This document shows, piece after piece, positions 3,204 to 51,552 of a DNA stretch of 64,000 bases. The stretch comes from Vicinamibacterales bacterium (lineage in GTDB: Bacteria > Acidobacteriota > Vicinamibacteria > Vicinamibacterales > JAMQPK01), in assembly GCA_963790545.1 (NCBI GenBank), contig CAWBPA010000024.1, positions 94,014 to 158,013 on the forward strand, in the 5' to 3' direction. A program made the position numbers and the translations under genes. The first letter of the stretch is position 1. Every line of letters begins with the position of its first letter. The notes under the pieces are model-generated. The model did not search any database and was not told the origin of the DNA. It saw only the letters and a list, made by a program, of their open reading frames with translations.

Positions 3204-3212
3204 AACAAAGTC

Positions 3213-4187
3213 TCAAGTCAGACTTTCCATTATTTCGTCGTGAAGACCCGCCCGAATCGGGCGAATGGCTTCGTTGTTCCGAGTGGGATGCACGCGGTTG
3301 GTCAAGAGCACCACGTAAACGTTGTGGACCGGATCGATCCAGAGTGACGTTCCGGTAAAGCCGGTGTGTCCGAACGCTTGGGGCGACATCCGTGAGCCGC
3401 ACGATGAGGTCGGCAGCATCGTGTCCCATCCGAGCGCGCGGGAACTGCCGGGCACGCCGGTCTTCGTCAGGAACTGCCGAAGCGTCGCAGTCGATGCCAG
3501 GCGTAACGCGTCTGGTGACGACTGAGACGTGACCTCGCGCAATACGCGCTGCGCAAACTTGCCAACCGCCACTACCGATCCAAACAGTCCCGCGTGGCCT
3601 GCCGCTCCGCCGAGGGCCCAGCAATTCTCGTCGTGCACTTCACCGATGAGCTGTCGCCCTCGCCACGGATCGACCTCGGTTGGCGCCGTGCGATCGCGCC
3701 ACGATCCGGGGGGATGAAAAGCCAGCTGTCCGATTCCGAGCTCGGTCATGAGCGCCGTACCTTGATCGCCGAACGACCGTCCTCCCACGTCTTCGAGAAT
3801 GAATCCAAGAATCATGAAGCCGAGATCGCTGTAAATCGATTGCGTCCGAGGCGCGTATTCGAGTGGCAGCGTCGCGATGGCGTGTTGGTACTCGCGACGC
3901 CCGACATGATCGCGAAAGAGGGGAAGCCACGCTGTGAGGCCGCTCGCGTGTTCGAGAAGATCCCGAACCGTCACAGTTTCCCGGTCGTGCCCCCTCCACT
4001 CGCTGATGCGACTCCCGACGGTGTCATCAAGCGACAGGCGACCCTCGTCGACGCGACGCATGGCAAGCGATGTCGTGACGATGACTTTGGTGAGCGAGGC
4101 CAGATCAAAAATCGTGTCCGATGTCGCGACCGGGGCAGCTGGATCGTACAGAAGAGCGACCGAACGCCTCACGCCAGAGGAGTTCAT
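3213..4187 (-). CDS. serine hydrolase, class C beta-lactamase / esterase family
   Basis: SLTK (SxxK) near the N-terminus, YSD and HTGFTG (KTG-like) motifs. No signal peptide from the called Met; the real start may lie upstream, before the terminator at 4288. Confidence 0.7.
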   Translation of the reverse strand: MNSSGVRRSVALLYDPAAPVATSDTIFDLASLTKVIVTTSLAMRRVDEGRLSLDDTVGSRISEWRGHDRETVTVRDLLEHASGLTAWLPLFRDHVGRREYQHAIATLPLEYAPRTQSIYSDLGFMILGFILEDVGGRSFGDQGTALMTELGIGQLAFHPPGSWRDRTAPTEVDPWRGRQLIGEVHDENCWALGGAAGHAGLFGSVVAVGKFAQRVLREVTSQSSPDALRLASTATLRQFLTKTGVPGSSRALGWDTMLPTSSCGSRMSPQAFGHTGFTGTSLWIDPVHNVYVVLLTNRVHPTRNNEAIRPIRAGLHDEIMESLT

Positions 4188-5631: not shown

Positions 5632-5878
5632 ACAGCGCGACTGTAACAGTGGCTGCCGTACGTGTCAAACCCGGCTCTCGGATTTCGAGAGCCAAAAGCC
5701 TCGCCCCGAGCCCCGCCCTTCGAGATCCGAGAGCCTTGCGCCGAGTCCCGCGTTTATAATCGGCCGACATGCCATTCCTCTCGTCCTCAAAGGAACAATT
5801 CTGAGCCTCACGCACGTTGTTGGCCTCGACGTCGGCAGCTCGAAGACGCAGTGCTTTCTCGCCGACGGCGATGGCCGT

Positions 5879-12220: not shown

Positions 12221-12282
12221 CCGCTCCTATACAGTTTGGCAGGCGCACTACCATTCGGGCCGAATTGCTGGTAAAATCTCGG

Positions 12283-12352
12283 ACGCTGAGGAGCGTTGCA
12301 CTCCCCGACAGGGGGACCAGGCTCAGTGTAATAAACGGCGCTCGCACAGTTA
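12283..12352 (+). ncRNA. putative SAH (S-adenosylhomocysteine) riboswitch in the ahcY leader
   Basis: CGCUGAGGAGCGUUGCAC..CCCCGACAGGGG..CAGGCUCAGUG..AAACGGCGCUCGC matches the remembered SAH-riboswitch core (GAGGAGCGYUGC ... AGGCUCRG ... AACGGCGCUC). The P1 pairing CUGAG/CUCAG shows a compensatory change relative to the usual CCGAG/CUCGG. Located ~140 nt upstream of the ahcY start. Confidence 0.7.
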
Positions 12353-12494
12353 ATTCGTGCGGGCGCTTTTGTGTTTTCAGCCACACAAGCGAGCCGCCTC
12401 GTGGGTCAACCGCCTGCGTGAGCTTCGGCAAGCCTCGCCGCAGCATCAAGAGCGGAGGCTGGCAATCCCCACGAATCAAGAGAGGAGTCCAATC

Positions 12495-13892
12495 GTGTCC
12501 ACTGCCACCACGTCCGCAGACTACAAGGTCGCCGATTTGGCCCTGGCCGACTGGGGTCGCAAAGAAATCCGCATTGCCGAAGGTGAAATGCCCGCGCTGA
12601 TGGCCATCCGTCAGGAGTACGCCGCTAACCAGCCGCTCAAGGGTGCCCGGGTGGCCGGCTCGCTGCACATGACCATTCAGACGGCGGTCCTCATCGAGAC
12701 GCTGAAGGCGCTCGGTGCCGACGTGCGCTGGGCTTCCTGCAACATCTTTTCGACGCAGGATCACGCGGCCGCAGCCATTGCCGCCGCCGGCATCCCGGTC
12801 TTCGCCTACAAGGGCGAATCGCTCGACGAGTACTGGGAGTTCACACATCGCATTCTCGAGTTCGGCACTCAGGGTCCCAACATGATCCTGGACGATGGCG
12901 GCGACGCGACGTTGCTCGTCCACCTGGGTATCAAGGCCGAGAAGGATCCCTCGGTGCTCGATCACCCCAAGAGCGACGAGGAACGATCGTTGTTTGCTTC
13001 CATCAAGAAGCGTCCCAGTGGTTGGTATTCGAGAATTGCGCGAGAGATCAGGGGCGTCTCCGAGGAGACCACCACGGGCGTCCATCGCCTGTACCAGATG
13101 CACAACGAAGGACGACTGCTGTTCCCCGCCATCAACGTCAACGATTCGGTGACCAAGTCGAAGTTCGACAACATCTACGGTTGCCGCGAGTCGCTGGTCG
13201 ATGGGATCAAGCGAGCGACCGACGTGATGGTTGCCGGGAAGGTCGCCGTGGTGTGCGGGTACGGAGAAGTGGGGAAGGGGTCAGCACAGGCACTGCGCGG
13301 CCTTCAGGCCCAGGTCTGGGTGACGGAGATCGATCCGATCTGCGCGCTCCAGGCCGCCATGGAAGGGTTCCGCGTGGTGACGATGGAGTACGCGGCCGAC
13401 AAGGCTGACATTTTCGTCACCGCCACCGGCAACCTCCACGTGATTACGCACGCACACATGAGGGCGATGAAGAACAACGCCATCGTGTGCAACATCGGCC
13501 ATTTCGACAACGAAATCGACATTGCGAGCCTCTCGAAGTACAAGTGGGAGGAGATCAAGCCACAGGTCGATCACATCATCTTCCCCGACGGCAAGCGGAT
13601 CATCATGCTGGCACAGGGACGACTCGTGAACCTTGGTTGTGCCACAGGCCATCCGTCGTACGTCATGAGCTCGTCATTCGCCAACCAGGTGCTGGCACAG
13701 ATCGAGCTCTTCACGAAAACCTCGCAGTACCCCGTAGGCGTTTACATCCTGCCGAAGGCACTTGACGAGAAGGTCGCCCGGCTGCAGCTGAAGAATCTCA
13801 ACGTGATGATGACCGAGCTGACCGACGAGCAGGCCAAATACCTCGGCCTGCCGAAGAGCGGACCGTATAAGTCGGAGCACTACCGGTACTGA
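12495..13892 (+). CDS. ahcY: adenosylhomocysteinase
   Basis: [20 protein letters not shown]-binding GYGEVGKG and full-length AhcY similarity; GTG start at 12495 with AGAGGAG 8 nt upstream. The called ORF from 12357 is probably leader sequence. Confidence 0.9.
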
Positions 13893-14053
13893 CGACATTT
13901 GCGATCGAGCGAATAGTGAATCGATGGTGATTGGCGATGAGCGACTGGTGATTTATTGGAGATTCACGGTGAACGTCAATAAATCGCCAATCACCATTCA
14001 GAATTCGGAAACGATTCGCAAATCGCGATTCGCGAAATCTTGCTGCAATTTCC

Positions 14054-16510: not shown

Positions 16511-18747
16511 ATGACTAAGGTCGCCATTCTCTGGCACATGCACCAGCCGTACTACGAGGACCTGGCCACGGGCGAGCACATCATGCCCTGGGTGAGGCTG
16601 CACGCACTCAAGGACTATTTCGGCATGGTCGCGCTTCTGCGGGAGTTTCCAAAGGTTCGAATGACCTTCAACCTGGTGCCCTCGCTGCTCGTTCAGATTC
16701 AGGCCTTTGCCGACGCCAACGCCCGGGATCGGTTCCTGGAACTCGGGCTCAAGCCCGCCGCGCAGTTGAGTGACGACGACCGAACGTTCGTCGTGGCGAA
16801 CTTCTTCCACGCGCAACGTGCCCGCATGATTGAGGCTTACCCCCGGTACGCCGAGCTTTTCGACCAGCGCGAGCGCGCCCGACGCATGAACCTGACCGGC
16901 GACTCCGGCCCCCGGGAACAGGCGCGCGTCTTCGACGAGTCCGATCTGCGAGACCTGCAGGTATGGCAGAAGCTCGCGTGGATCGACCCGATGTACCGCG
17001 CCGAATGATCCCCGTGTACGAGCCTTGGTCAAGCAGGACCGGGGGTTCAGCGAGGACGACAAGTTGACGTTGCGGGCCGTCGAGCTCGAGCTGCTGCAGC
17101 GCGTGATTCCGGAATATCGAGCGGCCGCCGAAAGGGGACAGGTCGAGCTCTCGGTATCGCCGTTCTACCACCCAATCTTGCCGCTCCTGTGCGATACGGA
17201 CGTCTACCTGCGAAACGACCCGCAGGCCAAGCTCCCTCGCCAGCGATTCCATCATCCGGAGGACGCGCAAGAGCAGTTGAATCGTGCGGTGACGTACTAC
17301 GAAGAGCTGTTCGGGCGACGGCCACGAGGACTCTGGCCCTCGGAGGGGTCGGTCTCGGACGAGATGGTTCCGCTCGCGGCGGAGGCCGGCATTCAGTGGC
17401 TGGCCACCGACGAAATCATCCTTGCCCGTTCGCTCGGTCGTCCGATGCCACGAAGCGGCCACGACCGTTTGGAGCATCCGGAACTGCTGTACCGCCCGTA
17501 TCGAGTGTCAACCCCGCAGGGCGATGTGACATGCCTCTTCCGCGATCATGCGCTGTCCGATCTCATCGGGTTCAGCTATTCCAATTGGTCTCCTCACGAC
17601 GCCGCGCGCGATCTGATCGAGCGACTGGTCGACGCGGGCCGCCGGTATTCGGAGCGAACCGGCGGGGAAGAGGCGACCATTTCAATCATCCTGGATGGGG
17701 AAAACGCCTGGGAGCATTACGAGGGCGGAGGACGCCCATTCCTGCGGGCTCTATACCAGGGGCTTTCGGAGCATGTCGACCTGAAAACCGTGACCATGGC
17801 CGAGGCGGCCACCGGACCGGCAGAGCGTCTTCGATCGCTCTACCCGGGTTCCTGGGTCAATGGGGACTTCTACATCTGGATTGGCCATGCCGACGATCGG
17901 AAAGCCTGGGGTCAGCTTGCCGAAGCGCGTGACACCTATACCCAGGCAGCCGAGTCACCGACGGTCGATCCGCAATCCAAAGCGCGGGCCTTCGAAGAGA
18001 TTCTCATTGCGGAAGGCAGCGACTGGTGCTGGTGGTACGGCGACGATCACTCGTCCAGCCACGACCTGGAATTCGACGACCTGTTTCGCCGACATCTTCG
18101 GAACGTGTATCGACTCCTCCGGAAACCCGTCCCCGAGGAGCTGTACGTCAGCAACATCACGTCCCCGCCGACTCAGGGGACCGTCATCCAGCCCGCCGGC
18201 TTTGTGCGCCCGGTCATCGACGGGGAGGTCTCGAACTACTTCGAGTGGCTTGGCGCAGGCCTCGTGGACGGCCACGATCTGGCGGGAACGATGCACCAGG
18301 CCGACGCGGCGACGACCCACCTGGTCAACGCCCTGCACTTCGGGTTCGACTTGACGCGACTCTTTATCCGAGTGGACCTGGTTCGGCGGGCGGCCGATGT
18401 CCTGGGCTCTGGCCGGTTCGTGTTCCGGGTCATCTTTCTCGTGCCCACAACACTTGAGGGTGGACCTGACCCGCCACGGCTCCGCCTGGCACCGGTGGTG
18501 GCTCCGGCCGAACCCGACCAACGGGAAACTCTCCCTCCCAGCCTCGCTCGACGCCCAAGCCTCCGTGGGTGACATCGTCGAGCTTGCCATCTCTCTTGAA
18601 GCGCTTGGCGTCAAGCCGGGCGACCCTCTCGCGTTCTCAATCTCGGTCCTGGACGACGGGATCGAGGTGCAGCGGTATCCAGGCTTCAGCGCCATCGAAA
18701 CCCACGTGCCAACGTCCCAGTTGGAAGACCTGAACTGGCGAGCGTAG
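16511..18747 (+). CDS. glycoside hydrolase family 57 (alpha-glucan branching / amylopullulanase-like), broken by two frameshifts (~17006 and ~18460)
   Basis: GH57 N-terminal signature VAILWHMHQPYY. The reading frame changes at ...WIDPMYRAE* and continues as DPRVRALVKQDRGFSEDDK. The C-terminal beta-sandwich part continues in a third frame to 18747. Confidence 0.7.
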
Positions 18748-19055
18748 CCCCAGGAGCGGGACTCGGGATCAGGGCGCTCGGGTCGGAGTCCGCGGCCCAT
18801 CAATCCCCGAATCCCCGCGTTTTCCGGGGCCTCCAACCGTTGGGTCCGATAATAAGTGTTATGTTAACTAACGTGGGGAATGGCCTGAGAGTCGGCTTCA
18901 AAACGACTCTCTTTGCGCGGACGTCCTTCCCGCCCACGGATCGAACACGCGCACGCTGAAGCGTGCGCGCTACACACACGAACCAACCCAGCGTCGCCGT
19001 CATGTAGCGCGCAGGCTTTAGCCTGCGCCGCACCCAAAACCCCGCACTCTCTTTT

Positions 19056-19090
19056 GAGACTTCAGACTTCAGACTTGAGCCTTCAGACTT
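19056..19090. repeat. tandem heptamer repeat (GACTTCA-like x5)
   Basis: gacttca gacttca gacttga gccttca gactt; same heptamer as the palindrome at 49886-49966. Confidence 0.7.
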
Positions 19091-19097
19091 ATATTTG

Positions 19098-19911
<814 letters not shown>

Positions 19912-19919
<8 letters not shown>

Positions 19920-20668
19920 GGTCGATGACCTCCTCACACAAGCTGTAGTATTCGGTCGCGCCCGTCGAATCGGGGGCAAACGTGAAAGATCGATTCCTTG
20001 TAGGCCGGACTTTCCTCGAGGCGGACGCTCTTGGTGATGACCGTCTTGAAAACTTTCCCGCCAAAGACCTTCTGAATCTGACCGCGGATATCGCGGGCCA
20101 GCGCGGTCCGCTTGTCGTGCATCGTGATGAGCACGCCAAGAATCCGCAGATTCGGGTTCGGCCGCGCACGCACCTTTTCAATGGTCTCGAGGAGGTCGTC
20201 GGTGCCTTCAAGGGCGAAGTATGACGACTGGATGGGAATGAGCAGGTGCGTGGACGCGACCAGGGCGTTGACGGTCAGGAGCCCGAGCGTCGGCGGGCAA
20301 TCGATGACGATATGCCGGAAGTGTCCCAGGACCGGCTCGAGACGGTCTTTGAGCCGATAGTGGGAGTCGATCTCCCCCACCAGCTTGGACTCCAGCTTCG
20401 CCAGCGCGATGCGCGCGGGTGCCAGCGAAAGGTTTGTGAGCCCGGTACGCTGAATGACGTCGGTCATCGGCACGGCCTGCTCCGCCAGCGCGTCGTACAC
20501 GCTCCGGCCGATTTGCGTGATGTCCAGAAACGACATCGAGCTGTTGCCCTGGGGATCGAGGTCAATCAGAAGAGTGGGCTTTCCACGCAGTGCGAGTCCC
20601 GCCGCCAGGTTGATGGCGGTTGTGGTCTTCCCTACCCCGCCTTTTTGGTTGGCAATGGCAACAATCAT
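19912..20668 (-). CDS. parA: chromosome partitioning ATPase ParA/Soj, frameshifted near 19985
   Basis: Walker A KGGVGKTT and deviant Walker motifs. The conserved C-terminus (...FTFAPDSTGATEYYSLCEEVIDRA) lies in another frame (ORF 19912-20211). Confidence 0.75.
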
Positions 20669-22735: not shown

Positions 22736-24464
22736 TCAGTCTCCTATCCTAACGCTTCGTCGAGGCTGTTTCGCCTTCGCCCTTTCGCTTTCGCCTTTCG
22801 CCTTAGATTCGTTCTGCGCGAGGTGCCACATCTCCTTCGCGCTCACTCGCGCGTTCTCCGTGACGCGCGCGCCGCCGAGCATGCGCGCCAGTTCTTCTAC
22901 CGCTTCGGTGTCATCGAGCCGACTGACGCGCGTGAGGGTCCTCCCCTGCCGCACTTCCTTGCTGATGCGGTAATGAGAGCTGGCATGCGCGGCAACCTGT
23001 GCAAGATGTGTGATGCACAGTACCTGCGCGACGCCACCGAGACCGCTCAGTTTCCGACCAACGACATCCGCAACTCGTCCGCCAATGCCGGCATCCACCT
23101 CGTCGAAGATCGTGGCCCGGCCAGGTCGATCGGCCGCTGCCAGGGACTTGATGCCCAGCATGATTCGCGAGAGCTCTCCACCAGACGCAATACGCGCAAG
23201 GGGCCGCGGATCTTCGCCAGGGTTCGCCGAGAGGTAGCATTCCGCGCGGTCGATTCCGCGAGCGGTCCACCCCTGCTCGATTCCATTCGTCGCGAGTGGC
23301 GTGTCGGCTCGCTCGAGCCGGACTTCGAAAGAGGCGTGTTCCATGGCCAGCTCGGCAAGCGTCCCCTCGAGTGCGCGGGCGAAACGTGCGGCCGCCTGCG
23401 CCCTCTCGCGAGACAACGCGCGCGCGTGTCGCAGAAATTCCTCGGATGCCGCCATTGACCGCATCGGTAAGCGATCCGATGCGTTCCTCGGCGTGCTCGA
23501 ATGCCTCAATCTGAGCCACGAATGCGTCGCGCGCGGCAATGGCCTGGTCCAGCGTTGGACCGTACTTCCGTTTCAACCGCTCGAGCAGCGCCAGACGCTC
23601 TTCAATGTGTTGCAGCCGTGCAGGAGACGCATCAATGCCGGGCCGCATAGTCACGTGCAAAGAATGCGAGGTCTTCGAGCTGCCCCTTGACGGGATCCCG
23701 CAGCTCGACGAACGGCTGGAAGTGCGGCTCAATTGAGGCAAGCTCGGTGAGCTTCCGCCAGACGTGTCCGAGCTGAGGCAGCACGCCATGGTCGCTCTCG
23801 TACAGCGTCGCGTAGCGTTTCTGCGCAGAGCCGCTGCAGTCGTTCTGCACTCGCGAGCACACGCTTCGATGCGGACAGTTCGTCATCCTCGCCGGCACGG
23901 AGGGCGGCTTTCTGAAGCTCGCCAAGCCTGGAAGCGCAGCAGGTCGAGGCGAGCCGCCTTTTCACGCTCGTCGATCTGCAGGCGCGCCAGCTCGTCGCGT
24001 CGATCGCGCCAGGCGCGCGAACGCCACCGCGACGGCCGCGCGACGCTCCTCGAGGTGCGCGTACGAATCGAGCAGATCGAGGTGGCTCTCCGGGTTGAGG
24101 AGCACCTGATGTTCGTGCTGTCCGTGAAGCTCGACGAGCGATGTCGTCGTTTCTTTGAGCGCAGCCGGCCGAAACCTGGGCACCATCAACAAAGGCACGG
24201 CTGCGTCCCTGGGCGGTCACCTCGCGCCGCACGACCACGGTGCCGCCCTGCGGGGTTTCGAATACCGCCTGGACTGCGGCCTGGGACTTCGCCGGTTCGC
24301 ACCAGGTCGGACGATGCGCGGTCGCCCATCAAGAGCCCCACGGCCTCCACGAGCATCGACTTGCCGGCACCGGTTTCGCCAGTCAGCACATTGAAGCCCG
24401 GCTGGAACTCGACCTCCAGGCTTTCAATGACCGCGAGGTTCTGGATGTTGAGCTGGCGGAGCAT
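22736..24464 (-). pseudogene. recN: DNA repair protein RecN, split into at least five frame fragments
   Basis: N-terminal fragment MLRQLNIQNLAVIESLEVEF..LTGETGAGKS; middle fragments with RREVTAQGRSRAFVDGAQV and LVELHGQHEHQVLL; C-terminal ASGGELSRIMLGIK..DEVDAGIGG..QVLCITHLAQVAA..ARMLGG. These lie in different frames across 1.7 kb. Confidence 0.75.
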
Positions 24465-30551: not shown

Positions 30552-30680
30552 CGATTCGTGATTTCTGATTCGTGATATAGAACTCAAGCCTACCTATCAG
30601 CGTTGTCGCCGCCAGGCCGACGCTGGCCCGCCCGAACGAACGTTGACAATGCCGGATTCCTGGATGTAGCGTCACCTCGC

Positions 30681-34431: not shown

Positions 34432-34484
34432 GTGTCCCTCGCTGCTCACGCGGATTGCTGACGCGGGCCCTTAAAGGGTCCGCG

Positions 34485-36260
34485 CTACAGGTCACTTGTC
34501 ACTGGACCGACCGACACGCCCCCGAGTGTCGTCAACAGGTACCGTTCGATGTCCGGTACGCTCGAGAGCCGAAGCACGTGCGCAGCCACGCGGCGCAACT
34601 GCGACGCATCGGCTTCCGCCAATACCTGCCGGGCGGTCGGAATGGCCGATGGGGCCATGCTGAACGACGTGAGGCCCATGCCGACCAGGAGCGCCAGCAG
34701 GACCGGGTCGGACGCCATCTCACCGCACACCGACACGGCTCGTCCCTGACGCGAGGCGGCGCGCCGCACCATGCGGATGAGTCGAAGAATCGATGGGTGA
34801 AGCGGCTCGTACAGGTGTGAGACCCGGTCGTCGGTGCGATCGACCGCCAGGCAGCACTGGATGAGATCGTTGGTGCCAATGGTGAGAAAGTCCGCCTCGC
34901 GAGCCAGCAGGTCCGACGTAAAGGCGGCCGATGGCACCTCGATCATCACGCCAACCTGAACGGCGGCCATCGATTCGCCGCGAGCTTTCAGTTCGGCCAT
35001 CGCATCGGCGAGCACAGCTTTCGCTTCCCTGAATTCCTCCACTCCCGAGATGAACGGGAACATGATGCGAAGGTCCCCATGGCGGGCTGCTCGCAGGAGC
35101 GCGCGCAGTTGGCGTCGCAACAGTTCCGGCCGTTTCAGCGCTAACCGGGTGGCGCGCAGCCCCAGACGAGAGCGGCCGTGCTCGGTCGGCTCACTCCAGG
35201 ATGGTCGGACCATCGCGTGGTGGCGCGCGACCAGCTGATCTTCGTCGATGTCGAACGTCCTCACGGTCACCGGTCCGGGGGCCATGCGCTCGAGCATCTG
35301 ACGGTAGACTTCGAACTGCACATCTTCGGTGAGCTCTTTCGCCGTCCGATCCATCAGCAGGAATTCGGAACGATACAGGCCGACGCCATCGGCGCCCTGA
35401 TGCCGGGCCGAGACCACATCGGACAGGAGTTCGATGTTCGCCTCCAACCTGATCGACACACCGTCCCGAGTCTTCGTCTCTTCGCCAGCGGGAATCGTGC
35501 GGAGTTCGGGCCTGGCGCTCGCCTGCCGCTGGACGTCGGTCACGAGACTGGCCGGCGCGTCCAGCACCAGTGAGCCCTCGCTGCCATCGATGACCACGAG
35601 CGTCCCCGGTACGGCTCGCCGGCTGGCATCGTGCAAACCCACGACGGCCGGAACATGAAGGGAGCGCGCCAGAATGGCCGTGTGATACGTGCGACTGCCG
35701 GCATCGGTCGCAAACGCCCTGATGTGCGACCAGTCGAGCTGAGCCGCCATCGACGGCGTGAGCTCATCGGCAATCAAGACGCACGGCTCGTCGAAGTCTT
35801 TGAACAGATCACGGGGACTGGAGGCATCATGGCGCAGGTTCATCCGCAGGCGCCCGACCAGATCGCTCAAATCCTCTTTCCGTTCGCGAAGGTACGGGTC
35901 TTCGACCGCGCTGAACACGCTCGAGATCTCGTCGAACACCCGTTGCACGGCCCATTCCGCATTGACCCGCTGCTCGCGAATCATCGCCACGGCGCGGGTC
36001 AGCCACATGGGGTCGTCGAGCATCAGCAGGTGAGCATCGAACAGCGACGCCAGCTCATGTCCCGCGCCGGACGACAGCCGATCCCGGATGGCGGCCAGCT
36101 GCTGCCGCGAGCTGGCGCGCGCGGCCTCGAGGCGGCCCAGCTCGCGTTCAACGCGTGCCGCAGAAATCGAAAACCGCAGAACCTGGGTGAAGTGGGTCAG
36201 CACGACGGCCCGACCCGCCGCCACCCCAGGAGAAACGCCAATGCCTTCGAGACGTTGCAC
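34485..36260 (-). CDS. ptsI: phosphoenolpyruvate-protein phosphotransferase (PTS enzyme I)
   Basis: Full-length EI with PEP-utilising motifs (GLYRSEF, IGTNDLIQ, SVCGEMA) and the phosphohistidine domain. Confidence 0.9.
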   Translation of the reverse strand: MQRLEGIGVSPGVAAGRAVVLTHFTQVLRFSISAARVERELGRLEAARASSRQQLAAIRDRLSSGAGHELASLFDAHLLMLDDPMWLTRAVAMIREQRVNAEWAVQRVFDEISSVFSAVEDPYLRERKEDLSDLVGRLRMNLRHDASSPRDLFKDFDEPCVLIADELTPSMAAQLDWSHIRAFATDAGSRTYHTAILARSLHVPAVVGLHDASRRAVPGTLVVIDGSEGSLVLDAPASLVTDVQRQASARPELRTIPAGEETKTRDGVSIRLEANIELLSDVVSARHQGADGVGLYRSEFLLMDRTAKELTEDVQFEVYRQMLERMAPGPVTVRTFDIDEDQLVARHHAMVRPSWSEPTEHGRSRLGLRATRLALKRPELLRRQLRALLRAARHGDLRIMFPFISGVEEFREAKAVLADAMAELKARGESMAAVQVGVMIEVPSAAFTSDLLAREADFLTIGTNDLIQCCLAVDRTDDRVSHLYEPLHPSILRLIRMVRRAASRQGRAVSVCGEMASDPVLLALLVGMGLTSFSMAPSAIPTARQVLAEADASQLRRVAAHVLRLSSVPDIERYLLTTLGGVSVGPVTSDL

Positions 36261-36263: not shown

Positions 36264-36527
36264 CTATTCACCAAATCCTGATTCTACGAGCCGGCACAGG
36301 GCCTCGACGGCCGCCTGTTCATCCTGGCCGTCGGCTGAAATCGTCAGCCACGTTCCCCGTGCGGCCGCCAATAGGAGAATTCCCATGATGCTCTTGCCGT
36401 CCATGGCCTTATCTTCGCGCGACACGCGCACCTGCGACTCGAACCGTGTGGCGATCTGAACGAACTTCGCTGCCGCCCGCGCGTGCAGGCCAAGCTGATT
36501 CACGATGGTGACGCGGCGTGAAATCAC
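36264..36527 (-). CDS. ptsH: phosphocarrier protein HPr / NPr
   Basis: 87 aa; NQLGLHARAAAKF with His15-type active site. Confidence 0.85.
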   Translation of the reverse strand: MISRRVTIVNQLGLHARAAAKFVQIATRFESQVRVSREDKAMDGKSIMGILLLAAARGTWLTISADGQDEQAAVEALCRLVESGFGE

Positions 36528-36559
36528 TTGAAGCTTAAGCCTTGAGCCTTGCGCCTTTA

Positions 36560-36961
36560 TTAGGTTGCCCGCATCAGATCAGATGCAACCCAGATGGCGG
36601 TTTTGGCGTACTTCGCCAGCTCACGGGCAACCGCCAGCAAATCGGGTGCGCCCCGGAGATCCCTCGCCTTGATCAGCATCGGCAGATTGACACCGGTAAT
36701 CACCTCGACCTTGCCGGCTTCGAGCAACGGGATGCAGAAGTTCGATGGCGTCCCGCCGAACATGTCGGTGAGGATGAGCACGCCCGATGGACTCCTAATC
36801 CGATCCACCGCCTTCGCAATTTGCTCCCGCGCGTCGTTCACGTCGTCATGCCACCCGATCGACACGGCCACGCACTGGGGCAGCTCGCCGACGATCATTT
36901 CGGCGGCATTGAGCAGCTCGGTGGCCAACCGTCCGTGCGTTACCACCACGACGCCAATCAT
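36560..36961 (-). CDS. PTS EIIA component, mannose/fructose family
   Basis: MIGVVVVTHGRLA...ILTDMFGGTPSN pattern of EIIA-Man; sits where ptsN lies in the E. coli rpoN operon. Confidence 0.75.
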   Translation of the reverse strand: MIGVVVVTHGRLATELLNAAEMIVGELPQCVAVSIGWHDDVNDAREQIAKAVDRIRSPSGVLILTDMFGGTPSNFCIPLLEAGKVEVITGVNLPMLIKARDLRGAPDLLAVARELAKYAKTAIWVASDLMRAT

Positions 36962-37004
36962 TTGACTTTTAACCTTTGCCCTTTGACCTTTGCCCTTTGA
37001 CCTT
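36962..37004. repeat. tandem heptamer repeat (CTTTGMC x5-6 on the plus strand; GKCAAAG on the mRNA strand) between rapZ stop and the EIIA start
   Basis: ctttgcc ctttgac ctttgcc ctttgac ctttcaa; on the minus strand each unit carries an AAAGG SD-like core upstream of the EIIA ATG. Confidence 0.75.
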
Positions 37005-37922
37005 TCAACTGTCCTTCAGAATATCGCGATGCACGACGCGCGTGCGAACGCCCGCGACGGCGCCGAGCGGCGTGCGCAACGCTTCCGCGACCATCACCGA
37101 TCGATGCCGTCCACCCGTGCAGCCAATCGCGATGGTGAGATAACTCTTGCCTTCGGCGACGTACTGCGGGAGCACGAACATGAGGAACGACGTGAGGCGC
37201 GACAACAGATCCTTGGTGGACCTGTAGCGGCGCATGAACCGCACGACCGTCGGGTCGCGCCCGGTGCGCGGTTTCAGTTCGCGAACGAAGTGCGGGTTCG
37301 GCAGAAAACGCACGTCGAACACCAGATCGGAGTCGACCGGGACGCCAAACTTGTACCCGAAGCTCAGCAGGGTGACAATGAGCCCGGCCTGCTTTTGCAG
37401 ACCGGCAGCGAACGCCTTGAACGCCCTCCGCAAATCGTGCACCGTCATGTCCGAGGTGTCCAAAATAACATCCGCGAGGCGACGAATCGCATCGAGGCGC
37501 GCGCGCTCGTCGCGAATGCCCTCGGCCACCGATCGGGTTGGCGCGAGCGGATGGGGGCGGCGGGTTTCGCTGAATCGCCGCACCAGTGCGGCATTGCTGG
37601 CATCGAGAAAAATCAGCGCCGGGTGAAGCCCCTTCATCGCGCGGAGCTGGCGCAGAACCCTGGGAAAATGATCGAGGAATCCTTTCTCGCGGATATCCAC
37701 GACGATAGCCACCCTCGAGAGGCCCTCTCGCCGCGCCAGATCCGCCAGCGTAGGAATCAGTGTTGTCGGAAGATTGTCGACGCAGAAGTACCCGAGGTCT
37801 TCGAGCGCGCGGACCGCTTGAGACTTGCCGGAGCCCGACAGGCCCGTCAACACGACAAACCTCGAGCCCCCGCCTCGAAATTGCGGCTTTCGATCGCCGA
37901 TCTTCTTGGGCTTCTTGGTCAC
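37005..37922 (-). CDS. rapZ: RNase adapter protein RapZ (YhbJ/YvcJ P-loop family)
   Basis: Walker A GLSGSGKS, conserved ...CVDNLP..., C-terminal TGGRHRS motif. Confidence 0.88.
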   Translation of the reverse strand: MTKKPKKIGDRKPQFRGGGSRFVVLTGLSGSGKSQAVRALEDLGYFCVDNLPTTLIPTLADLARREGLSRVAIVVDIREKGFLDHFPRVLRQLRAMKGLHPALIFLDASNAALVRRFSETRRPHPLAPTRSVAEGIRDERARLDAIRRLADVILDTSDMTVHDLRRAFKAFAAGLQKQAGLIVTLLSFGYKFGVPVDSDLVFDVRFLPNPHFVRELKPRTGRDPTVVRFMRRYRSTKDLLSRLTSFLMFVLPQYVAEGKSYLTIAIGCTGGRHRSVMVAEALRTPLGAVAGVRTRVVHRDILKDS

Positions 37923-45345: not shown

Positions 45346-46335
45346 CTACGGGCCACCTATGGCCCCCTCACCCTCGTCCCGGAAATCAATCCCCAACCTT
45401 CCCATGTTGCGAAACTTCTGGTACCGGTTCTCGACGCGCGCGGCGGCATCGGCACCACGTAATTCAGCGAGCGTCCGGTTCAGCGCCTCGTCGAGCAGCG
45501 CCGTGGTACGATCTGCATCGGTGTGGGCACCGCCAATGGGCTCGGACACGATTTCGTCGATGATGCCCCGCTCGAGCAGGTCGGGCGCCGTCAACTTGAG
45601 CGCCTCCGCCGCTTCGACTTTCCGATTCGCATCGCGCCACAGGATGGCGGCACACCCTTCCGGCGGAATCACGCTGTAGATCGCGTGCTCGAGCATGAGA
45701 ATCCGATCGCCAATGGCAATACCAAGGGCCCCACCGCTCCCCCCTTCGCCCGTCACGATGACCACAACCGGCACGTCGAGCGTCATCATTTCGCGCAGGT
45801 TGAACGCGATCGCTTCGGCAATCCCCCGCTCCTCGGACTCGACACCCGGATAAGCGGCCGGCGTATCGATGAACACGACAATCGAACGTCCGAACTTCTC
45901 GGCCAGCCGCATCAGCCGGATCGCCTTGCGATAGCCCTCGGGCTTCGCGTATCCGAAGTTTCGATAGATCTTCTGTTTTGTGTCGCTGCCCTTCTGGTGA
46001 CCGACGACCATGACAGGGTCACCGCGGTAAAACGCGAATCCTCCCACGATGGCGCGATCGTCGGCAAAGCGGCGGTCACCGTGCAGCTCTGTGAACTCGG
46101 GAAACAGGCGCTCGATGAAATCGAGCATGTTCGGCCGATTCGGATGCCGGGCCACGAGCACCCGCTGCCAGGGGGTCAACCGGCTGTAAAGCTCCGCTCG
46201 TGCGGTCTCAAGACGTTTGCGCAGTCGCTCCAGCTCGTCGTCGCGAGCCGGTGTTTTCGGCAGGGCCGAGAGTGCGTCCAGCTCCTTGAGCAGGGGAGCA
46301 ATCGGTTCCTCGAAGTCGAGGAGTTCAGCGGGCAT
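45346..46335 (-). CDS. accA: acetyl-CoA carboxylase carboxyltransferase alpha subunit
   Basis: Full-length AccA similarity (ARHPNRP, GGFAFYRGDPVMVVGHQKG, oxyanion GGSGGALG). Confidence 0.9.
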   Translation of the reverse strand: MPAELLDFEEPIAPLLKELDALSALPKTPARDDELERLRKRLETARAELYSRLTPWQRVLVARHPNRPNMLDFIERLFPEFTELHGDRRFADDRAIVGGFAFYRGDPVMVVGHQKGSDTKQKIYRNFGYAKPEGYRKAIRLMRLAEKFGRSIVVFIDTPAAYPGVESEERGIAEAIAFNLREMMTLDVPVVVIVTGEGGSGGALGIAIGDRILMLEHAIYSVIPPEGCAAILWRDANRKVEAAEALKLTAPDLLERGIIDEIVSEPIGGAHTDADRTTALLDEALNRTLAELRGADAAARVENRYQKFRNMGRLGIDFRDEGEGAIGGP

Positions 46336-49300
46336 CAGCGCAGGACCACCGATCCCTGGCCACAGATCTTTTCAACTTCGCTGAGGAGCTGCTCGGTCGG
46401 CCGGATCCGAACCTGGCTCGCCAGATCGGCTCGTACGCGCAGCGGTCGGGAGTGACCGCGCAGCTCGAGCTCGAGCGAAACCCGGCGATCCCCGCGATGT
46501 GTGGCAAACAGCCCCGCAAGCGCCTCGAACGTGTCGCGCCCATGGGGAGGGACCGCCACACGAATTGCCACCTCGTGTGAAAGCCGTTCCCCAATCGCCT
46601 CGATCGGAATCACCTCCGACGAGAGCAACCGCATGAGCTCCTCGTCGCGTTCGAGCTTGCCCCGAACGACAATCGTCGCATCGTTCTGCAGGAGCGAGCC
46701 CGACTTGGAGAAGGCTTCTGGAAACACGACGACCTCGACGCTGCCATGCGGGTCTTCGAGGTTGAAGACCGCCATGCGATCGCCTTTGCGCGTCTTGAGC
46801 TGCCGGACTCCGCTCACGATGCCCCCCACGCAGACGTCCGCCTCACCCGTGCGCCCGGAGCCGTTGCCGTTGCGGGGGGCCGCCTCGACAGTCGCAAGAT
46901 CGGCCAGCGTCTTCGCCCCATACTGTTTGAGATCGGCGGCATAGCGATCGATCGGGTGTCCGCTCCAATAGAGTCCCAGGGCGTCTTTCTCTCCGGCCAA
47001 CTGTTGCGCGTCGGTCCACGGCTGGACATCGATGTGGGAAAGCGTGTCGGGCACGTCGCGGTCCGCTTCACCGTTTTCGCCACCCTGTTCGAACAGGCCC
47101 CCCTGGCCGCGATCGCGATCGCGTTGCAGCCGGGCGCCATGTTCACAGGCGACATCCACGGCCGCGAGCAGCTTCGCCCGAACCAAGCCGCGGGGTGAGG
47201 CAACACCATTGGATGGGACGAGGGCGTCGAACGACCCAGCCTTCACCAGACTCTCAAAGACACGCTTGTTGACGGCGCGCAGATCGAGGTCCTCACACAA
47301 CCGGTACAGCGACCGGATGCGTCCGCGCGACCGCCTGACATCGAGTATGGCGGCCACGGCTCCTTCGCCCACGTTCCGGACGGCGGCAAGACCGTAGCGC
47401 ACACCTTCTGCCGCAACCGTAAACGCCCACTGACTTTCGTTGATATCCGGCGGCAGCACCGGGATCCCCCGTTCGCGGCACTCTCCCAGGTACAACGCCA
47501 GTTTTTCGGTGTTCTGTGACTCGATGGTGAGGAGCGCCGCCGCAAAATGCCAGGGGTAGTTGGCCTTCAGGAAGGCTGTCTGATAGGCGAGCACGGCGTA
47601 CGCCGTCGAATGCGACTTGTTGAATCCATATCCAGCGAAATGCTCCATCAAATCGAAGATCTTGGTGGCCTTCTTCTCGGAGATGCCCCTCTTGCGTGCG
47701 CCGGCGACGAACTTCTGGCGCTGGGCCTGCATCACGTCGGCCTTCTTCTTCCCCATCGCCTTCCGCAAGATGTCGGCTTCGCCCAGCGAGAAACCCGCCA
47801 GCTCGCTCGCAATCCGCATCACCTGCTCTTGGTACGCGATGACGCCGTACGTATCCGCCAGTACCGGCTCGAGCTGGGGAACCTCGTAATTGATCGCGAC
47901 CTTTCCATGCTTGCGCGCGATGAAGTCGTCCACCATGCCGCTGCGCAACGGCCCGGGTCGATAGAGGGCGTTGAGTGCAATGAGATCGTCCAGACGCTGC
48001 GGCTTGGCCTTGCGCAAGATGTCGCGCATCCCCGAGCTCTCGAACTGGAAGATGCCGTAGGTCTGGCCATCGGAGAAAATCTGATAGGTACGGCTGTCGT
48101 CGAGCGGGATAGCATCGAGGTCCAGCACCTGGCCGGTCGTTCGCCGGATTTCGTCCACCGCATCGCGCAGCAGCGTCAGCGTGCTCAGGCCGAGGAAATC
48201 CATCTTCAGCAGCCCGACGCGCTCAATCTCTTTCATCGCCCACTGCGTCGTGATTTCACCCCGCTGCCCTTTGTAGAGGGGCACGAACTCCGTCAGCGGC
48301 CGCGGCGCAATGACCACCCCTGCCGCATGCACCGACGCGTGGCGCGTCATACCCTCTAACCGTCGGGCCACGTCGAGCAACTCCTGCACCCGCTGATCGT
48401 TCTGCTGGAGCTCTTTGAGGGCTGGTGACTCTTCGAGCGCCTTGTCCAACGTCATATCGAGCGTGGCCGGAATCTGCTTGGCGACCTTGTCGACGTCGGC
48501 ATACGCAATGTCCAGTGCGCGGCCCACGTCCCGCACGGCCGCCTTGGCCTTCATGGTCCCGAACGTAATGATTTGGGCCACGTTCTCGCGGCCATACTTC
48601 CGCGTGACGTACTCGATGACCTCTCCTCGACGCCGCTCGCAGAAATCGATGTCGATGTCGGGCAGCGACACCCGCTCCGGATTCAGGAAGCGCTCGAAAA
48701 TCAAGTCGTACTCGAGCGGGTCCACGTCTGTGATGCGCAGACAGTAGGCCACCAGACTCCCAGCCGCCGACCCACGCCCCGGTCCGACCGGAATCCCCTG
48801 CTCGCGCGCGTACCGGATGAAATCCCACACGATCAGGAAGTACCCGGGATACCGCATCCGCCGGATCATTTCGATTTCGTACGACAGCCGCCGCTCGTAC
48901 TCCTCTACGGTGTGCCGCAGGACACCTGCCGACGCCAGCGCCTTCAGCCGCTGCAGTCGCGCCAGAAAGCCTTCGCGGACGACGTGCTCGAAGTACTCGT
49001 CGAGCGTGTACGGAACCGGAACTTCGAAATTCGGCAGGTAGTTTTCTGTGGAGTCCAGGTTGACGCGGCACCGTTCCGCAATGCGCATCGTATTGGCGAG
49101 CGCATCGGGGACATCCTTGAAGATTGACGCCATTTCGTCAGGCGTCTTGAAGAAAAACTGATCCCCGTGATAGCGAAGACGATCGCGGTCGTTGACAGTC
49201 TTGCCCGTTCCAATGCACAACAGGATGTCGTGCGGGCGATGATCGTCCTGCCGCAGATAGTGGACGTCGTTGGTGGCCACGAGCGGCAACCCCAACTCCC

Positions 49301-49883
49301 GGGCAATCGGCAGCAGCCCGTTGTTCACCACCAGCTGCTCCTCGATACCCTGGTACTGCATTTCGAGGAACAGGTTCTCAGCACCGAGGATGTCGCGGAA
49401 GGTCGCGGCGGCCTCGAGCGCCTTCCGTTCGCGCCCGGTTCGGATTTCGCTCGCGACCTCACCCTTCAGACAGCTCGTGAGCCCAATCAGTCCCGTGGCG
49501 TGCTGTGCCAACAACTCCTTGTCGATCCGCGGCCGATAGTAAAACCCCTCAGTATAACCAGCCGAGACGAGCTTGATCAGGTTGTGGTAGCCCTCGCTCG
49601 TCTCCGCGAGCAGCACGAGATGGTTGGCAGTCTCGCTAATCGGCCCGCCCTTCGTGTGGCGGCTTCCCGGCGCGACGTACACTTCACAGCCGAGAATCGG
49701 ATTGATTCCCCGCGCCCGCGCATGATCGTGGAAGATCACCGACGAGAACATGTTGCCGTGCTCGGTGACCGCCAACGCCGGCATGTTCAGCGCCGCCGCG
49801 TGGTCGAGCAGCTCATCAATCCGGCAAGCGCCATCCAGCAGCGAGTACTCGGTATGAAGATGGAGATGAACGAAATCGGACAT
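46335..49883 (-). CDS. dnaE: DNA polymerase III alpha subunit
   Basis: PHP domain LHLHTEYSLLDGA, polymerase core, OB-fold; single uninterrupted 1182-aa frame. Confidence 0.92.
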   Translation of the reverse strand: MSDFVHLHLHTEYSLLDGACRIDELLDHAAALNMPALAVTEHGNMFSSVIFHDHARARGINPILGCEVYVAPGSRHTKGGPISETANHLVLLAETSEGYHNLIKLVSAGYTEGFYYRPRIDKELLAQHATGLIGLTSCLKGEVASEIRTGRERKALEAAATFRDILGAENLFLEMQYQGIEEQLVVNNGLLPIARELGLPLVATNDVHYLRQDDHRPHDILLCIGTGKTVNDRDRLRYHGDQFFFKTPDEMASIFKDVPDALANTMRIAERCRVNLDSTENYLPNFEVPVPYTLDEYFEHVVREGFLARLQRLKALASAGVLRHTVEEYERRLSYEIEMIRRMRYPGYFLIVWDFIRYAREQGIPVGPGRGSAAGSLVAYCLRITDVDPLEYDLIFERFLNPERVSLPDIDIDFCERRRGEVIEYVTRKYGRENVAQIITFGTMKAKAAVRDVGRALDIAYADVDKVAKQIPATLDMTLDKALEESPALKELQQNDQRVQELLDVARRLEGMTRHASVHAAGVVIAPRPLTEFVPLYKGQRGEITTQWAMKEIERVGLLKMDFLGLSTLTLLRDAVDEIRRTTGQVLDLDAIPLDDSRTYQIFSDGQTYGIFQFESSGMRDILRKAKPQRLDDLIALNALYRPGPLRSGMVDDFIARKHGKVAINYEVPQLEPVLADTYGVIAYQEQVMRIASELAGFSLGEADILRKAMGKKKADVMQAQRQKFVAGARKRGISEKKATKIFDLMEHFAGYGFNKSHSTAYAVLAYQTAFLKANYPWHFAAALLTIESQNTEKLALYLGECRERGIPVLPPDINESQWAFTVAAEGVRYGLAAVRNVGEGAVAAILDVRRSRGRIRSLYRLCEDLDLRAVNKRVFESLVKAGSFDALVPSNGVASPRGLVRAKLLAAVDVACEHGARLQRDRDRGQGGLFEQGGENGEADRDVPDTLSHIDVQPWTDAQQLAGEKDALGLYWSGHPIDRYAADLKQYGAKTLADLATVEAAPRNGNGSGRTGEADVCVGGIVSGVRQLKTRKGDRMAVFNLEDPHGSVEVVVFPEAFSKSGSLLQNDATIVVRGKLERDEELMRLLSSEVIPIEAIGERLSHEVAIRVAVPPHGRDTFEALAGLFATHRGDRRVSLELELRGHSRPLRVRADLASQVRIRPTEQLLSEVEKICGQGSVVLR

Positions 49884-49885
49884 AT

Positions 49886-49966
49886 CAAAGACTCAAGTCT
49901 GAAGTCATGAAGGCTGAAGTCTGAAGAAATTCTGACTTCAGACTTCAGCTTCTGACTTCTGACTTG
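49886..49966. repeat. palindrome built from tandem heptamers (GTCTGAA x ~5, loop, GACTTCA x ~4) between the guaA stop and the dnaE start
   Basis: ...gtctgaa gtcatgaa ggctgaa gtctgaa gaaattc tgacttca gacttca gcttctgacttctgacttg; 13-bp perfect core stem ctgaagtctgaag/cttcagacttcag. Confidence 0.8.
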
Positions 49967-49968
49967 TC

Positions 49969-51552
49969 CTATTCCCACTCAATCGTCGCCGGCGGCTTCG
50001 AGCTGATGTCGTACACCACACGGTTGACACCGCGCACCTCATTGACCACGCGCGATGAAATGCGGGCGAGCAGCTCGTGCGGCAGCCTCGCCCAATCGGC
50101 CGTCATGCCGTCGCGGCTTTCCACGGCCCGGATTGCGGCCGTGTACTCGTAGGTCCGCGCGTCTCCCATGACGCCAACACTCTGGATTGGCAGGAGCACG
50201 GCAAAGCTCTGCCAGAGCCGCGTGTACCACCCGGCGGCACGAATCTCTTCCACGACAATCGCATCGACCTCTCGAAGAAGCGCCAACCGTTCTTCCGTGA
50301 CCTCACCGAGAATACGGACGGCCAGACCCGGCCCGGGGAACGGCTGCCGGACGACAAACGTCTCCTCCAGGCCGAGATCGCGACCGACCGAACGCACCTC
50401 ATCCTTGAAAAGCTCTCGCAGCGGCTCGACCAGCCGAAAACGCATCCGCTCAGGCAGACCGCCAACATTGTGATGGCTCTTGATGGCGTGTGACGGGCCC
50501 ACCACCGAGACCGATTCGATCACATCAGGGTAAAGCGTGCCCTGCGCGAGGAACTCGAATCCTCCAAGTTCTTCCGCCTTGGCCTCGAACACTTCGATGA
50601 ACGTCGCGCCAATGATTTTTCGCTTCTGCTCCGGGTCGGTGACGCCGCGCAGCCGATCGAGAAACAGCCGTGAGGCGTCCACGAAGACGAGCGGCAGTCG
50701 CATTTTCTCGGCAAACCGCTGACGTACCTGCCGCGCTTCGTCCCGCCGCAACACGCCGTTGTCCACGAAAATGCAGGTCAATCGCTCCCCGATGGCTCGA
50801 TGCACGAGCAACGCGGCCACGGTGGAATCGACGCCACCGCTGAGAGCACACACGACACGGCCATCCCCCACCTGTTGCCGGATTCGACCGATGGCTTCAT
50901 CGATGAAAGAGGTGATCGTCCAGTCACCGGTGCAGTGACAGACGTTGAATGCGAAGTTCCTGAGAATCTCGTCACCGCGATCGGTATGCGCGACCTCGGG
51001 ATGGAACAACAAGGCGTACAGATTCCGATCCGCATTCGTCATGGCCGCAACCGGGGCGTTTGCGCTCGTGGCAACCACCGCAAACCCCGGAGGGGCCGCC
51101 GCCACGAAATCCCCATGACTCGCCCAGACTCTCAGTTCCTGCGGCAAACCGTCAAACAAAGACATCGGCCGGCCAGGATCCAGCGCTGCCCACTCGACCG
51201 GCAGCATTCGTCGGCGGTCGAAGATCTCACCTGCACCAGGGCGTGTCCGTACTCGCGCTGGGGCGCGTGACCGACCTTCCCGCCTAGCGTCTCGGTCATC
51301 AATTGCATGCCGTAACAGATGCCAAGCGTCGGGATGCCGAGCTCGAACACTCCCGGATCGCACTTTGGCGCGCCGGGCTCGGATACGCTTCGCGGACCGC
51401 CGGAGAGGATGATGCCAACCGGTTGTCTTGCGGCAATTCGTTCGGGCGGCGTGTCGAACGGAAGGATTTCGGAATAGACGGAAAGCTCGCGCAGGCGTCG
51501 CGCAATCAACTGCGTGTATTGCGATCCAAAATCCAGGACGAGAATGGTTTGA
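49969..51552 (-). CDS. guaA: GMP synthase (glutamine-hydrolysing), one frameshift near 51240
   Basis: GATase domain ([24 protein letters not shown]) in one frame. The ATP-pyrophosphatase and dimerisation domains (SGGVDSTV...ATIEWE) are in the 624-aa ORF frame. TTG start proposed at ~51552. Confidence 0.8.

Follow-up and report, generated by a model that had tools for sequence, protein, structure and literature searches.

Tandem arrays of one heptamer at two gene boundaries of a Vicinamibacterales genome

In a 64,000-nucleotide stretch of a Vicinamibacterales genome (GenBank assembly GCA_963790545.1, contig CAWBPA010000024.1, positions 94,014 to 158,013; hereafter the window), the heptamer GACTTCA is repeated in tandem at two intergenic loci, as a direct array beside parB (locus A, 19057–19090) and as the inverted arms of a palindrome between guaA and dnaE (locus B, 49886–49966). 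We read both loci, with a probability of about 0.7, as heptanucleotide simple-sequence-repeat arrays, that is, as members of the class described as long simple sequence repeats (LSSRs) or short tandemly repeated repetitive (STRR) sequences, and not as a mobile element. Such arrays occupy unconstrained intergenic DNA, often from stop codon to start codon, and they gain and lose whole units, as replication slippage predicts. The sequence of the unit undergoes drift and re-homogenisation in situ; close relatives differ at one and the same spacer, from which the array can also be lost. The host is assigned to the Vicinamibacterales (Acidobacteriota) by the relatives of both GuaA and ParB, and the finding is a new lineage for a known repeat class, of which these arrays are ordinary members, rather than a new mobile element.

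The two GACTTCA loci

At locus A, Tandem Repeats Finder (TRF) reports a period of 7 and 4.9 copies with 85% matches to the consensus AGACTTC; this and the other arrays below are given without a strand unless one is stated. The letters at 19056–19092 read GA GACTTCA GACTTCA GACTTGA GCCTTCA GACTTAT, with only two perfect GACTTCA units, and on the parB sense strand the array is (GAAGTCT)n. It lies in the 525-bp gap between two convergent genes, a GH57 glycoside hydrolase gene (17025–18572, + strand; PF03065, E = 5e-48) and parB (19098–19979, - strand, stop codon at 19098–19100; ParB_N and HTH_ParB domains). A sequence-only reading of the window had placed about five copies downstream of the GH57 gene; the copy number agrees with (AGACTTC)x4.9, but the array is better called parB-proximal, because it ends 7 nt from the parB stop codon and begins 485 bp from the GH57 stop at 18572. 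No terminator-like site was found at 18500–19200, and the promoter search gave one weak promoter-like match, inside the array; neither a canonical terminator role nor a canonical promoter role is supported. A parS or ParB-binding role for locus A was considered and rejected, as there is no parS-like site with three or fewer mismatches and the array is not palindromic.

Locus B consists of two inverted arms, which TRF resolves as 49895–49926 (AAGTCTG x4.4) and 49930–49965 (TTCTGAC x5.3). The dnaE-proximal arm (49886–49926, letters on the + strand) reads AAGACTC AAGTCTG AAGTCATG AAGGCTG AAGTCTG AAGAAA, and the guaA-proximal arm (49930–49966) reads TTCTGAC TTCAGAC TTCAGC TTCTGAC TTCTGAC TTG. The arms are complementary and pair into a hairpin of some 35 bp. 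It fills the guaA–dnaE spacer of 85 bp, beginning 3 nt beyond the guaA stop and reaching to within about 3 nt of the dnaE ATG. The palindrome previously noted at this position is thus confirmed, with a predicted folding energy of -45.1 kcal/mol for the RNA of the transcribed (-) strand (z = -6.7; as good in 0 of 200 shuffles) and of -28.9 kcal/mol for the DNA (z = -8.0). Both flanking genes are on the - strand: guaA at 49969–51560, with its stop at 49969, and dnaE (Pol III alpha) at 46335–49883, with its ATG at 49883 directly after the hairpin. The hairpin is followed by the tail UCUUUGAU, there is no Shine-Dalgarno sequence ahead of the dnaE ATG, and neither a terminator-like site nor a U-tract was found at 49700–50150. 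The hairpin likely forms part of the guaA 3' untranslated region and of the dnaE 5' region; any effect would possibly be that of an intercistronic RNA hairpin, acting as a transcript stabiliser, a weak attenuator or a coupling spacer.

That one heptamer is used at both loci, as the sequence-only reading had stated, holds when measured: TRF gives arrays of 4.9, 4.4 and 5.3 copies, and the double unit (a 14-mer, allowing up to three mismatches) occurs 16 times in the window against 3.7 expected, a count reached in 0 of 100 shuffles, with 10 of the 16 occurrences in loci A and B. As a single word, GACTTCA shows no enrichment in the window: it is found 10 times where 7.1 would be expected, and 6 of these lie within loci A and B. 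The 64-kb window has no further tandem run of even two units. Read backwards, GACTTCA gives one of its own rotations.

The two loci have nothing in common outside the repeats. Their 150-nt flanks align no better than shuffles in any orientation, and every substring of 8 nt or more that they share falls within the arrays. When 185,579 species genomes were scanned for GACTTCAGACTTCAGACTT, at least 118 loci were found, where the size of the database would lead one to expect about 4 by chance; none of the 118 listed loci overlaps the window (blastn), and what is said below of GACTTCA arrays in other genomes refers to these listed matches. They come from Acidobacteriota, Planctomycetota, Bacteroidota, Cyanobacteria and others, and they have unrelated flanks and no target-site duplications. 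Flank alignment, common substrings and the 118 foreign copies therefore reveal no terminal inverted repeats, target-site duplication or conserved body at loci A and B. The sequence-only reading had proposed a dispersed element family, and had named the absence of both further copies and flank similarity as what would speak against it. Further copies do exist in other genomes and flank similarity does not; a discrete element is not supported, and what survives of the proposal is a genome-wide class of arrays in which units and variants are shared within genomes.

Two REP-like (repetitive extragenic palindromic) hairpins, each a GTAG with a GC-rich stem, stand in inverted orientation between the GH57 gene and locus A (18946–19033, by motif and folding), with the GTAG-bearing hairpins themselves at 18956–18973 and 19004–19021; they are a repeat family distinct from the heptamer arrays. 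Their pattern (GTAGCG, GC-rich stem, YTNNAG loop, stem) is found at 18946–19033 and also at 34470–34488, and the window has 4 matches where 0.43 would be expected, 3 of which fold cleanly as hairpins. The pair next to locus A is an inverted doublet of the kind seen in REPINs and bacterial interspersed mosaic elements (BIMEs), and the motif also occurs 3' of parB in relatives L191, L205, L218, L238 and L251.

Array turnover at orthologous spacers

The guaA–dnaE spacer was compared among relatives whose GuaA is 88–99% identical to that of the window; the best of them (93–99% identity) are soil-metagenome contigs and metagenome-assembled genomes (MAGs) named Vicinamibacterales, and the gene order guaA–dnaE–accA–recJ is conserved in relatives. 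The window itself (GuaA 100%) has an AGAAGTC/TGAAGTC hairpin in its 85-bp spacer. Hairpins are also found in L129 (GuaA 99%; AGAAGAC/AGAAGTC, -47 kcal/mol), L130 (96%; CAGTGGY/CACTGAC, -51 kcal/mol) and L257 (94%; AGAAGAC/GWCTTCT, -37 kcal/mol), direct arrays in L119–L128 (95%; CACTGAC, about seven copies) and L258 (94%; AGAGGGW, 14 copies), an AGAGGGN array together with a TCTTCTG array in L135 (93%), a short AAGGACC array in L259 (88%), and no array, only the 4-bp spacer GAAA, in L131–L134 (94%). This series indicates that the position keeps attracting arrays although the unit is not conserved, that the arms of a hairpin change together, and that the array is dispensable, since some relatives have no array and others an array that does not pair. 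Because locus B shares AGAAGTC units with L129 and its TGAAGTC units are one substitution away from these, we take its array to have evolved in place.

Whole-unit changes are seen directly among close populations. Contigs from different samples with identical GuaA carry arrays that differ in length by whole units: the guaA–dnaE spacer is 58 or 51 bp long (one additional unit), the spacer between mutS and the TsaD-family gene 83 or 104 bp, the difference being three AGTCGTC units (L123 has three more units than L120), and the period-9 GGGGAGGAT array ranges from 107 to 153 bp among near-identical strains, mostly in steps of 9. Such polymorphism points to local slippage, and slippage and in-place turnover are demonstrated in these relatives. 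The sequence-only reading had argued from the shared heptamer against independent local slippage, an argument that fails in the face of in-place unit divergence, of whole-unit polymorphism in near-identical strains, and of control heptamers that form arrays about as often. In a viral-contig collection, GACTTCA forms 9 stretches and three control heptamers of the same composition form 2, 12 and 18; clade sequence from outside the window, about 500 kb, has no GACTTCA-class array, and 0 of 36 arrays there come within one mismatch of it. These two results led us to reject the view that GACTTCA is preferred among heptamers globally.

Next to parB, an array begins directly at the stop codon in many of 80 relatives, with a different unit in each (GGAGTCTT, GAGTCCR, TAGTCGG, TCAGTCG, TTTCCAG, CCAGCTT, a GCAGAGG hairpin and others). 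The arrays of the closest relatives have an NAGTC core in common, and other relatives have REP-like hairpins or nothing 3' of parB. A separate conserved motif, TTAGTTAACATAACAYYCATTATCAGAC, stands about 50–130 nt after parB in L193, L196, L201, L206, L212, L218, L220, L223, L243 and L246; it could be a promoter, a small-RNA start or origin-related, and is not present at the corresponding place in the window.

Arrays with at least three copies were counted in 564 kb of clade sequence not selected for repeats. Period 7 accounts for 41 of the 77 arrays found and period 14 for 13, and the 41 period-7 arrays fall into 28 unit classes; in the window and five relatives, 15 of 22 arrays have period 7 and 2 more have period 14. 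The units are AT-richer than the genome, with ACTG/CAGT enriched 6-fold and AGTC/GACT 4.3-fold, both of which are upper estimates because the counts include orthologous and paired arrays. An inverted partner lies within 120 nt of 19 of 46 arrays, as compared with 2 and 4 for control units; the same holds for 32 of the 118 listed GACTTCA arrays of other genomes (2 of 118 for controls) and for 15 of the 37 listed from Acidobacteriota. Inverted pairs make up about 40% of arrays, their arms co-vary, and they are found in convergent, co-directional and divergent spacers alike. The notion that a period of 7 serves to place stop codons in all three frames was dropped: TAG is present in the array at 1049 and, as TAGTCGG, in L182, but its presence is inconsistent across the arrays downstream of parB.

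The turnover series and the 40% of inverted pairs are the most useful by-products of the analysis. The guaA–dnaE spacer is a clean natural experiment: within 88–99% protein identity it shows no fewer than four unit families, states with and without a hairpin, and total loss of the array. Together with the whole-unit polymorphism of close populations, this makes array birth, arm-to-arm co-conversion and possible inter-locus exchange directly measurable.

Origin of the shared unit and of the inverted pairs

The inverted pairs, with arms that change together, would most readily arise by hairpin or fold-back template switching during replication, that is, by quasipalindrome correction, a process that has been described (PMC7202029); selection for pairing may also contribute. 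The common unit of loci A and B would reflect a general tendency of arrays in the same genome to be alike. Such likeness would be in keeping with ectopic copying or gene conversion that now and then takes place between arrays of already similar sequence; TGAAGTC differs by a single base from AGAAGTC, the unit found both in locus B and in its orthologues. The sharing could alternatively be due to a bias specific to the genome. Neither transposition nor an element-encoded protein would be involved.

This account has to be weighed first against pure coincidence, in which the two arrays are independent in origin and evolution and have the same unit by chance, a possibility that we consider rather unlikely. 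In its favour, the units of the clade are diverse (the 28 classes among 41 arrays) and no GACTTCA-class array is found in the 500 kb outside the window; with about nine heptamer loci and some 1170 rotation/strand classes, the prior for some coincidence would be roughly 3%, and the 4-fold enrichment of the AGTC/GACT core raises it. Moreover, the unit of locus B is one step from the AGAAGTC of its orthologues, and the NAGTC-core units in relatives of locus A make convergence plausible. However, unit sharing within contigs is general. In this clade, the units of two arrays on the same contig, separated by more than 1 kb, are identical or differ by one mismatch in 11 of 89 cases (12.4%), as compared with 4.7% between contigs (p = 0.003); with the window set aside, the within-contig figure is 8 of 37. 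The AATTCCA arrays of L196 are a clear instance, again with no flank similarity. The GACTTCA unit itself, found at two loci in the 64-kb window, is present in the related MAGs QHWJ01 and DAIUKO01 at no fewer than seven and five loci, respectively. Loci A and B also have rare variants in common, AGCCTTCA, which is seen in 0 of the 118 listed foreign arrays, and CAGACTTGAG, seen in 3 of 118, and pairs of listed GACTTCA arrays share non-consensus 10-mers more often within a genome than across genomes (36% vs 15%, p = 5e-4). These comparisons suggest that the arrays within one genome are related to each other.

Several considerations weigh against our interpretation. The evidence for exchange is modest: within Acidobacteriota the sharing of 10-mers is 34% vs 18% (p = 0.02), and some foreign arrays share as many non-consensus 10-mers with locus A as locus B does. 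The tests of unit and variant sharing are statistical and post hoc and their pairs are not independent, so that relatedness between loci is no more than suggestive. Slippage by itself does not account for the preferred period of 7 or for the 40% of inverted pairs, and the template-switching step that would explain the latter is one that we infer and have not observed. It is also possible that the arrays have a regulatory role.

In its full form, such a role would make the guaA–dnaE hairpin a selected terminator, attenuator, RNase site or mRNA stabiliser and the parB array a multi-site binding platform for an RNA- or DNA-binding protein, with a trans-acting factor shared between them, and we regard this as unlikely. 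The hairpin is very stable, its arms co-vary with pairing kept in the window, L129, L257 and L130, and arrays sit exactly at gene boundaries; a transcript-stabilising or translation-coupling role has been proposed for the STRR hairpins of cyanobacteria (PMC2670836). A Shine-Dalgarno-like 4-mer precedes only 10 of 45 called starts in relatives, which makes unusual 5' leaders plausible but also means that arrays abutting start codons displace no ribosome-binding sites. On the other hand, L131–L134 make do with the 4-bp spacer and L119 and L258 with direct arrays that do not pair, the units differ among close relatives, inverted pairs occur in every spacer orientation (convergent, co-directional and divergent), and the two loci have no U-tract, no terminator-like site and no Rfam match.

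A bolder reading, which we hold to be doubtful, is that heptamer arrays are a protein-independent, self-propagating class, in which a unit seeds or overwrites other spacers by ectopic template switching or gene conversion while the arms are homogenised by fold-back copying. If so, Acidobacteriota, Planctomycetota and Cyanobacteria would have genome-specific 'favourite heptamers'. In a still stronger form, a lineage-specific trans-acting factor may read heptamers at gene boundaries in Shine-Dalgarno-poor genomes.

A non-autonomous mobile element made of GACTTCA repeats, similar to a REP or to a miniature inverted-repeat transposable element (MITE) and inserted at both loci, is largely refuted and highly improbable. 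It would account for one unit at two loci 31 kb apart and for the many copies in other genomes, and genuine REP-like hairpins do adjoin locus A; but conserved flanks, terminal inverted repeats and target-site duplications are absent, related arrays already stand in the orthologous spacers, so that locus B evolved in place, array length varies by whole units, and control heptamers behave alike. An assembly or sequencing artefact, to which apparent frameshifts in guaA and possibly in the kinase and mutS genes might point by way of assembly indel errors, is refuted as regards the existence of the arrays, which turn up again at these spacers in numerous independent assemblies of metagenomes from several sources, although exact copy numbers in the window could be slightly wrong.

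Known repeat classes and the other arrays of the window

According to summaries of Mrazek (2007) in PMC4679880 and PMC4692102, heptanucleotide repeats are the commonest class of LSSR and are attributed to slippage. As far as those summaries go, LSSRs are tandem 7-nt units beyond chance length, intergenic, with period 7 dominant and with length and sequence variable at one spacer, all as found here. Head-to-tail units of 5–11 nt and a preference for intergenic DNA are likewise found here, and whole-unit change in the relatives. What is added to the LSSR description is the high fraction of inverted pairs, the exact filling of spacers from stop to start, and unit sharing within genomes. We found no description of Vicinamibacterales as a host of LSSRs in the literature searched.

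In cyanobacteria, 7-bp STRR repeats form hairpins between the co-transcribed genes hupS and hupL (PMC2670836). The likeness lies in the 7-bp tandem unit and in the hairpins that some copies form between co-transcribed genes, and may extend to the dispersal of one unit at many intergenic loci of a genome; GACTTCA arrays are present in Nostoc, Calothrix, Okeania and Moorena. The phylum is different, however, and the window genome has many units where STRRs have a few dominant ones. The classical STRR1–3 units are CCCCAGT, TTGGTCA and CAACAGT, and all three are absent here.

The GGGAATC and GGGGAYT repeats of Xanthomonas and Nostoc are intergenic, keep their position while varying in length and sequence among related species, and include some inverted pairs (Rehm et al. 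2015, PMC4692102). They are G-rich and form G-quadruplexes, whereas GACTTCA and TGAAGTC have no G-run, where that type would call for at least three consecutive G in each unit; only the AGAGGGT and GGGGAGGAT arrays (in relatives and at 53804–53839) resemble the GGGAATC type. In marine Beggiatoaceae, whose genomes have few canonical ribosome-binding sites, TAACTGA direct repeats are found a few nucleotides 5' of start codons (MacGregor 2015, PMC4679880). They share with the present arrays a patchy distribution across phyla and a place near starts in genomes poor in ribosome-binding sites; there, in contrast, one heptamer dominates (169 sets) and related heptamers are rare, whereas here the units are diverse, and arrays are found after stop codons as well and in palindromic form.

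REP, BIME and REPIN sequences have the same intergenic niche, often between convergent genes, and form hairpins as doublets, but REPs have a conserved GTAG with a GC-rich stem and a cognate REP-associated tyrosine transposase (RAYT), and the heptamer arrays lack the GTAG palindrome. The simple-sequence contingency loci of phase variation in host-adapted pathogens also gain and lose whole units by slippage; they lie in promoters or open reading frames (ORFs) of surface or virulence genes and switch their expression, whereas here the arrays adjoin housekeeping genes, for the most part in 3' or intercistronic positions. The arrays are not REP/REPIN, MITE or CRISPR (clustered regularly interspaced short palindromic repeat) elements, nor are they canonical terminators.

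By TRF, the window holds about ten period-7/8 arrays with differing units. Each of them occupies a spacer flanked by genes with Pfam support, be it convergent, co-directional or divergent, and abuts a stop or start codon, and most of them run from codon to codon; on a rough ORF map about 9% of the window is intergenic, and arrays take up about a tenth of that. An inverted pair of octamer arrays, (TAGGGTTC)n/(GAACCCTA)n, lies at 1049–1146 between convergent pilin-like and PKD-domain genes and has a TAG stop codon in its first unit. A (CGATTCG)n array lies at 14012–14039 between the convergent AdoHcyase and lptF/G genes; its unit is one mismatch from that of the (GATTCGT)n array at 30553–30576, which starts 2 nt after the stop of a cupin gene. 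On the - strand, (AAGGCKC)n at 36534–36557 fills the spacer from the stop of the EIIA-Man gene to the HPr start, and (AAGGTCA/AAGGGCA)x6 at 36961–37005 that from the TGA stop of an upstream 305-aa ORF to the EIIA-Man ATG; in this three-gene run (305-aa ORF, EIIA-Man, HPr; 36527–37007, -), both intercistronic spacers are thus wholly AAGG-core heptamer arrays, stop to start. The divergent spacer between a 336-aa gene and a histidine kinase gene (53754–53839) contains (ACAGAAT)x5.6 and a G-rich period-9/18 array, and has orthologous, copy-number-polymorphic arrays in relatives. Another divergent spacer, between the starts of the TsaD-family gene (60956, -) and mutS (61049, +), is filled by an inverted pair, (ACAGTCS)n/(GACTGAC)n, at 60958–61038.

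A (TTTCGCC)n array at 22769–22804 lies at the 3' end of recN, whose ORF reads through it (22736–22810, -) to end in the tail ...KAKGESERAKAKQPRRSVRIGD; the native RecN C-terminus, with its stop, has probably been extended by the array or exchanged for it. In practical terms, arrays extend or truncate ORF calls, as in the recN tail and in over-long starts, can break assemblies, and offer strain-level markers. The guaA ORF is itself split, its N-terminal 124 codons being in another frame, with an apparent frameshift near 51181–51210; residues 1–124 of a 99%-identical GuaA relative align in frame -3 and residues 127–529 in frame -2, and the guaA of the window has two 1-nt insertions relative to L129. 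The histidine kinase and mutS genes are possibly affected likewise, at 55200–55660 and around 62818, respectively. The kinase ORF is short, at 626 aa as compared with about 1300, as is the mutS ORF, at 589 aa as compared with about 870, and together with the guaA split this suggests assembly indel errors or pseudogenes. Just 5' of the guaA start, a conserved leader is seen in the window (51561–51585, -), in L119 (9975–10000) and in L131, L135 and L259; its motifs, GGACCTCCG.ATCCCGGCCTCCACC ahead of GTG or TTG, are of the CCTCC type and resemble an anti-Shine-Dalgarno sequence.

G-rich arrays occur at 53804–53839 in the window, at 7736–7840 in L119, at 4453–4560 in L258 and at 11219–11339 in L135. 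Their units, GGGGAGGAT (period 9/18) and AGAGGGT (period 7), present regularly spaced tracts of three to four G, and they are potential G-quadruplex formers like the GGGNATC repeats of Xanthomonas and Nostoc. At 3204–3226, where convergent genes meet at a junction of 9 bp, lies a miniature site of the AAGTC type, AAAGTCTCAAGTCAGACTTT, with two AAGTCNN units and a 7-bp inverted repeat; it may represent a proto-array akin to the GACTTCA unit. A tandem repeat with a 35-bp unit and 1.9 copies (TTCGAGAGCCAAAAGCCTCGCCCCGAGCCCCGCCC) lies at 5684–5751 within an intergenic gap of 371 bp. In Rfam 15, at or above the gathering score, no array was matched, and the sole match in the window is an S-adenosylhomocysteine (SAH) riboswitch (RF01057, 53.7 bits) at 12282–12350 (+), directly 5' of the S-adenosylhomocysteine hydrolase gene at 12357–13892. 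Finally, one 40-kb contig of the viral collection, IMGVR_UViG_3300028840_003139 (L160, L162, L168, L170 and L173), carries at least 11 separate (GCATTCA)n arrays, a conspicuous case of one heptamer spread through a single genome.

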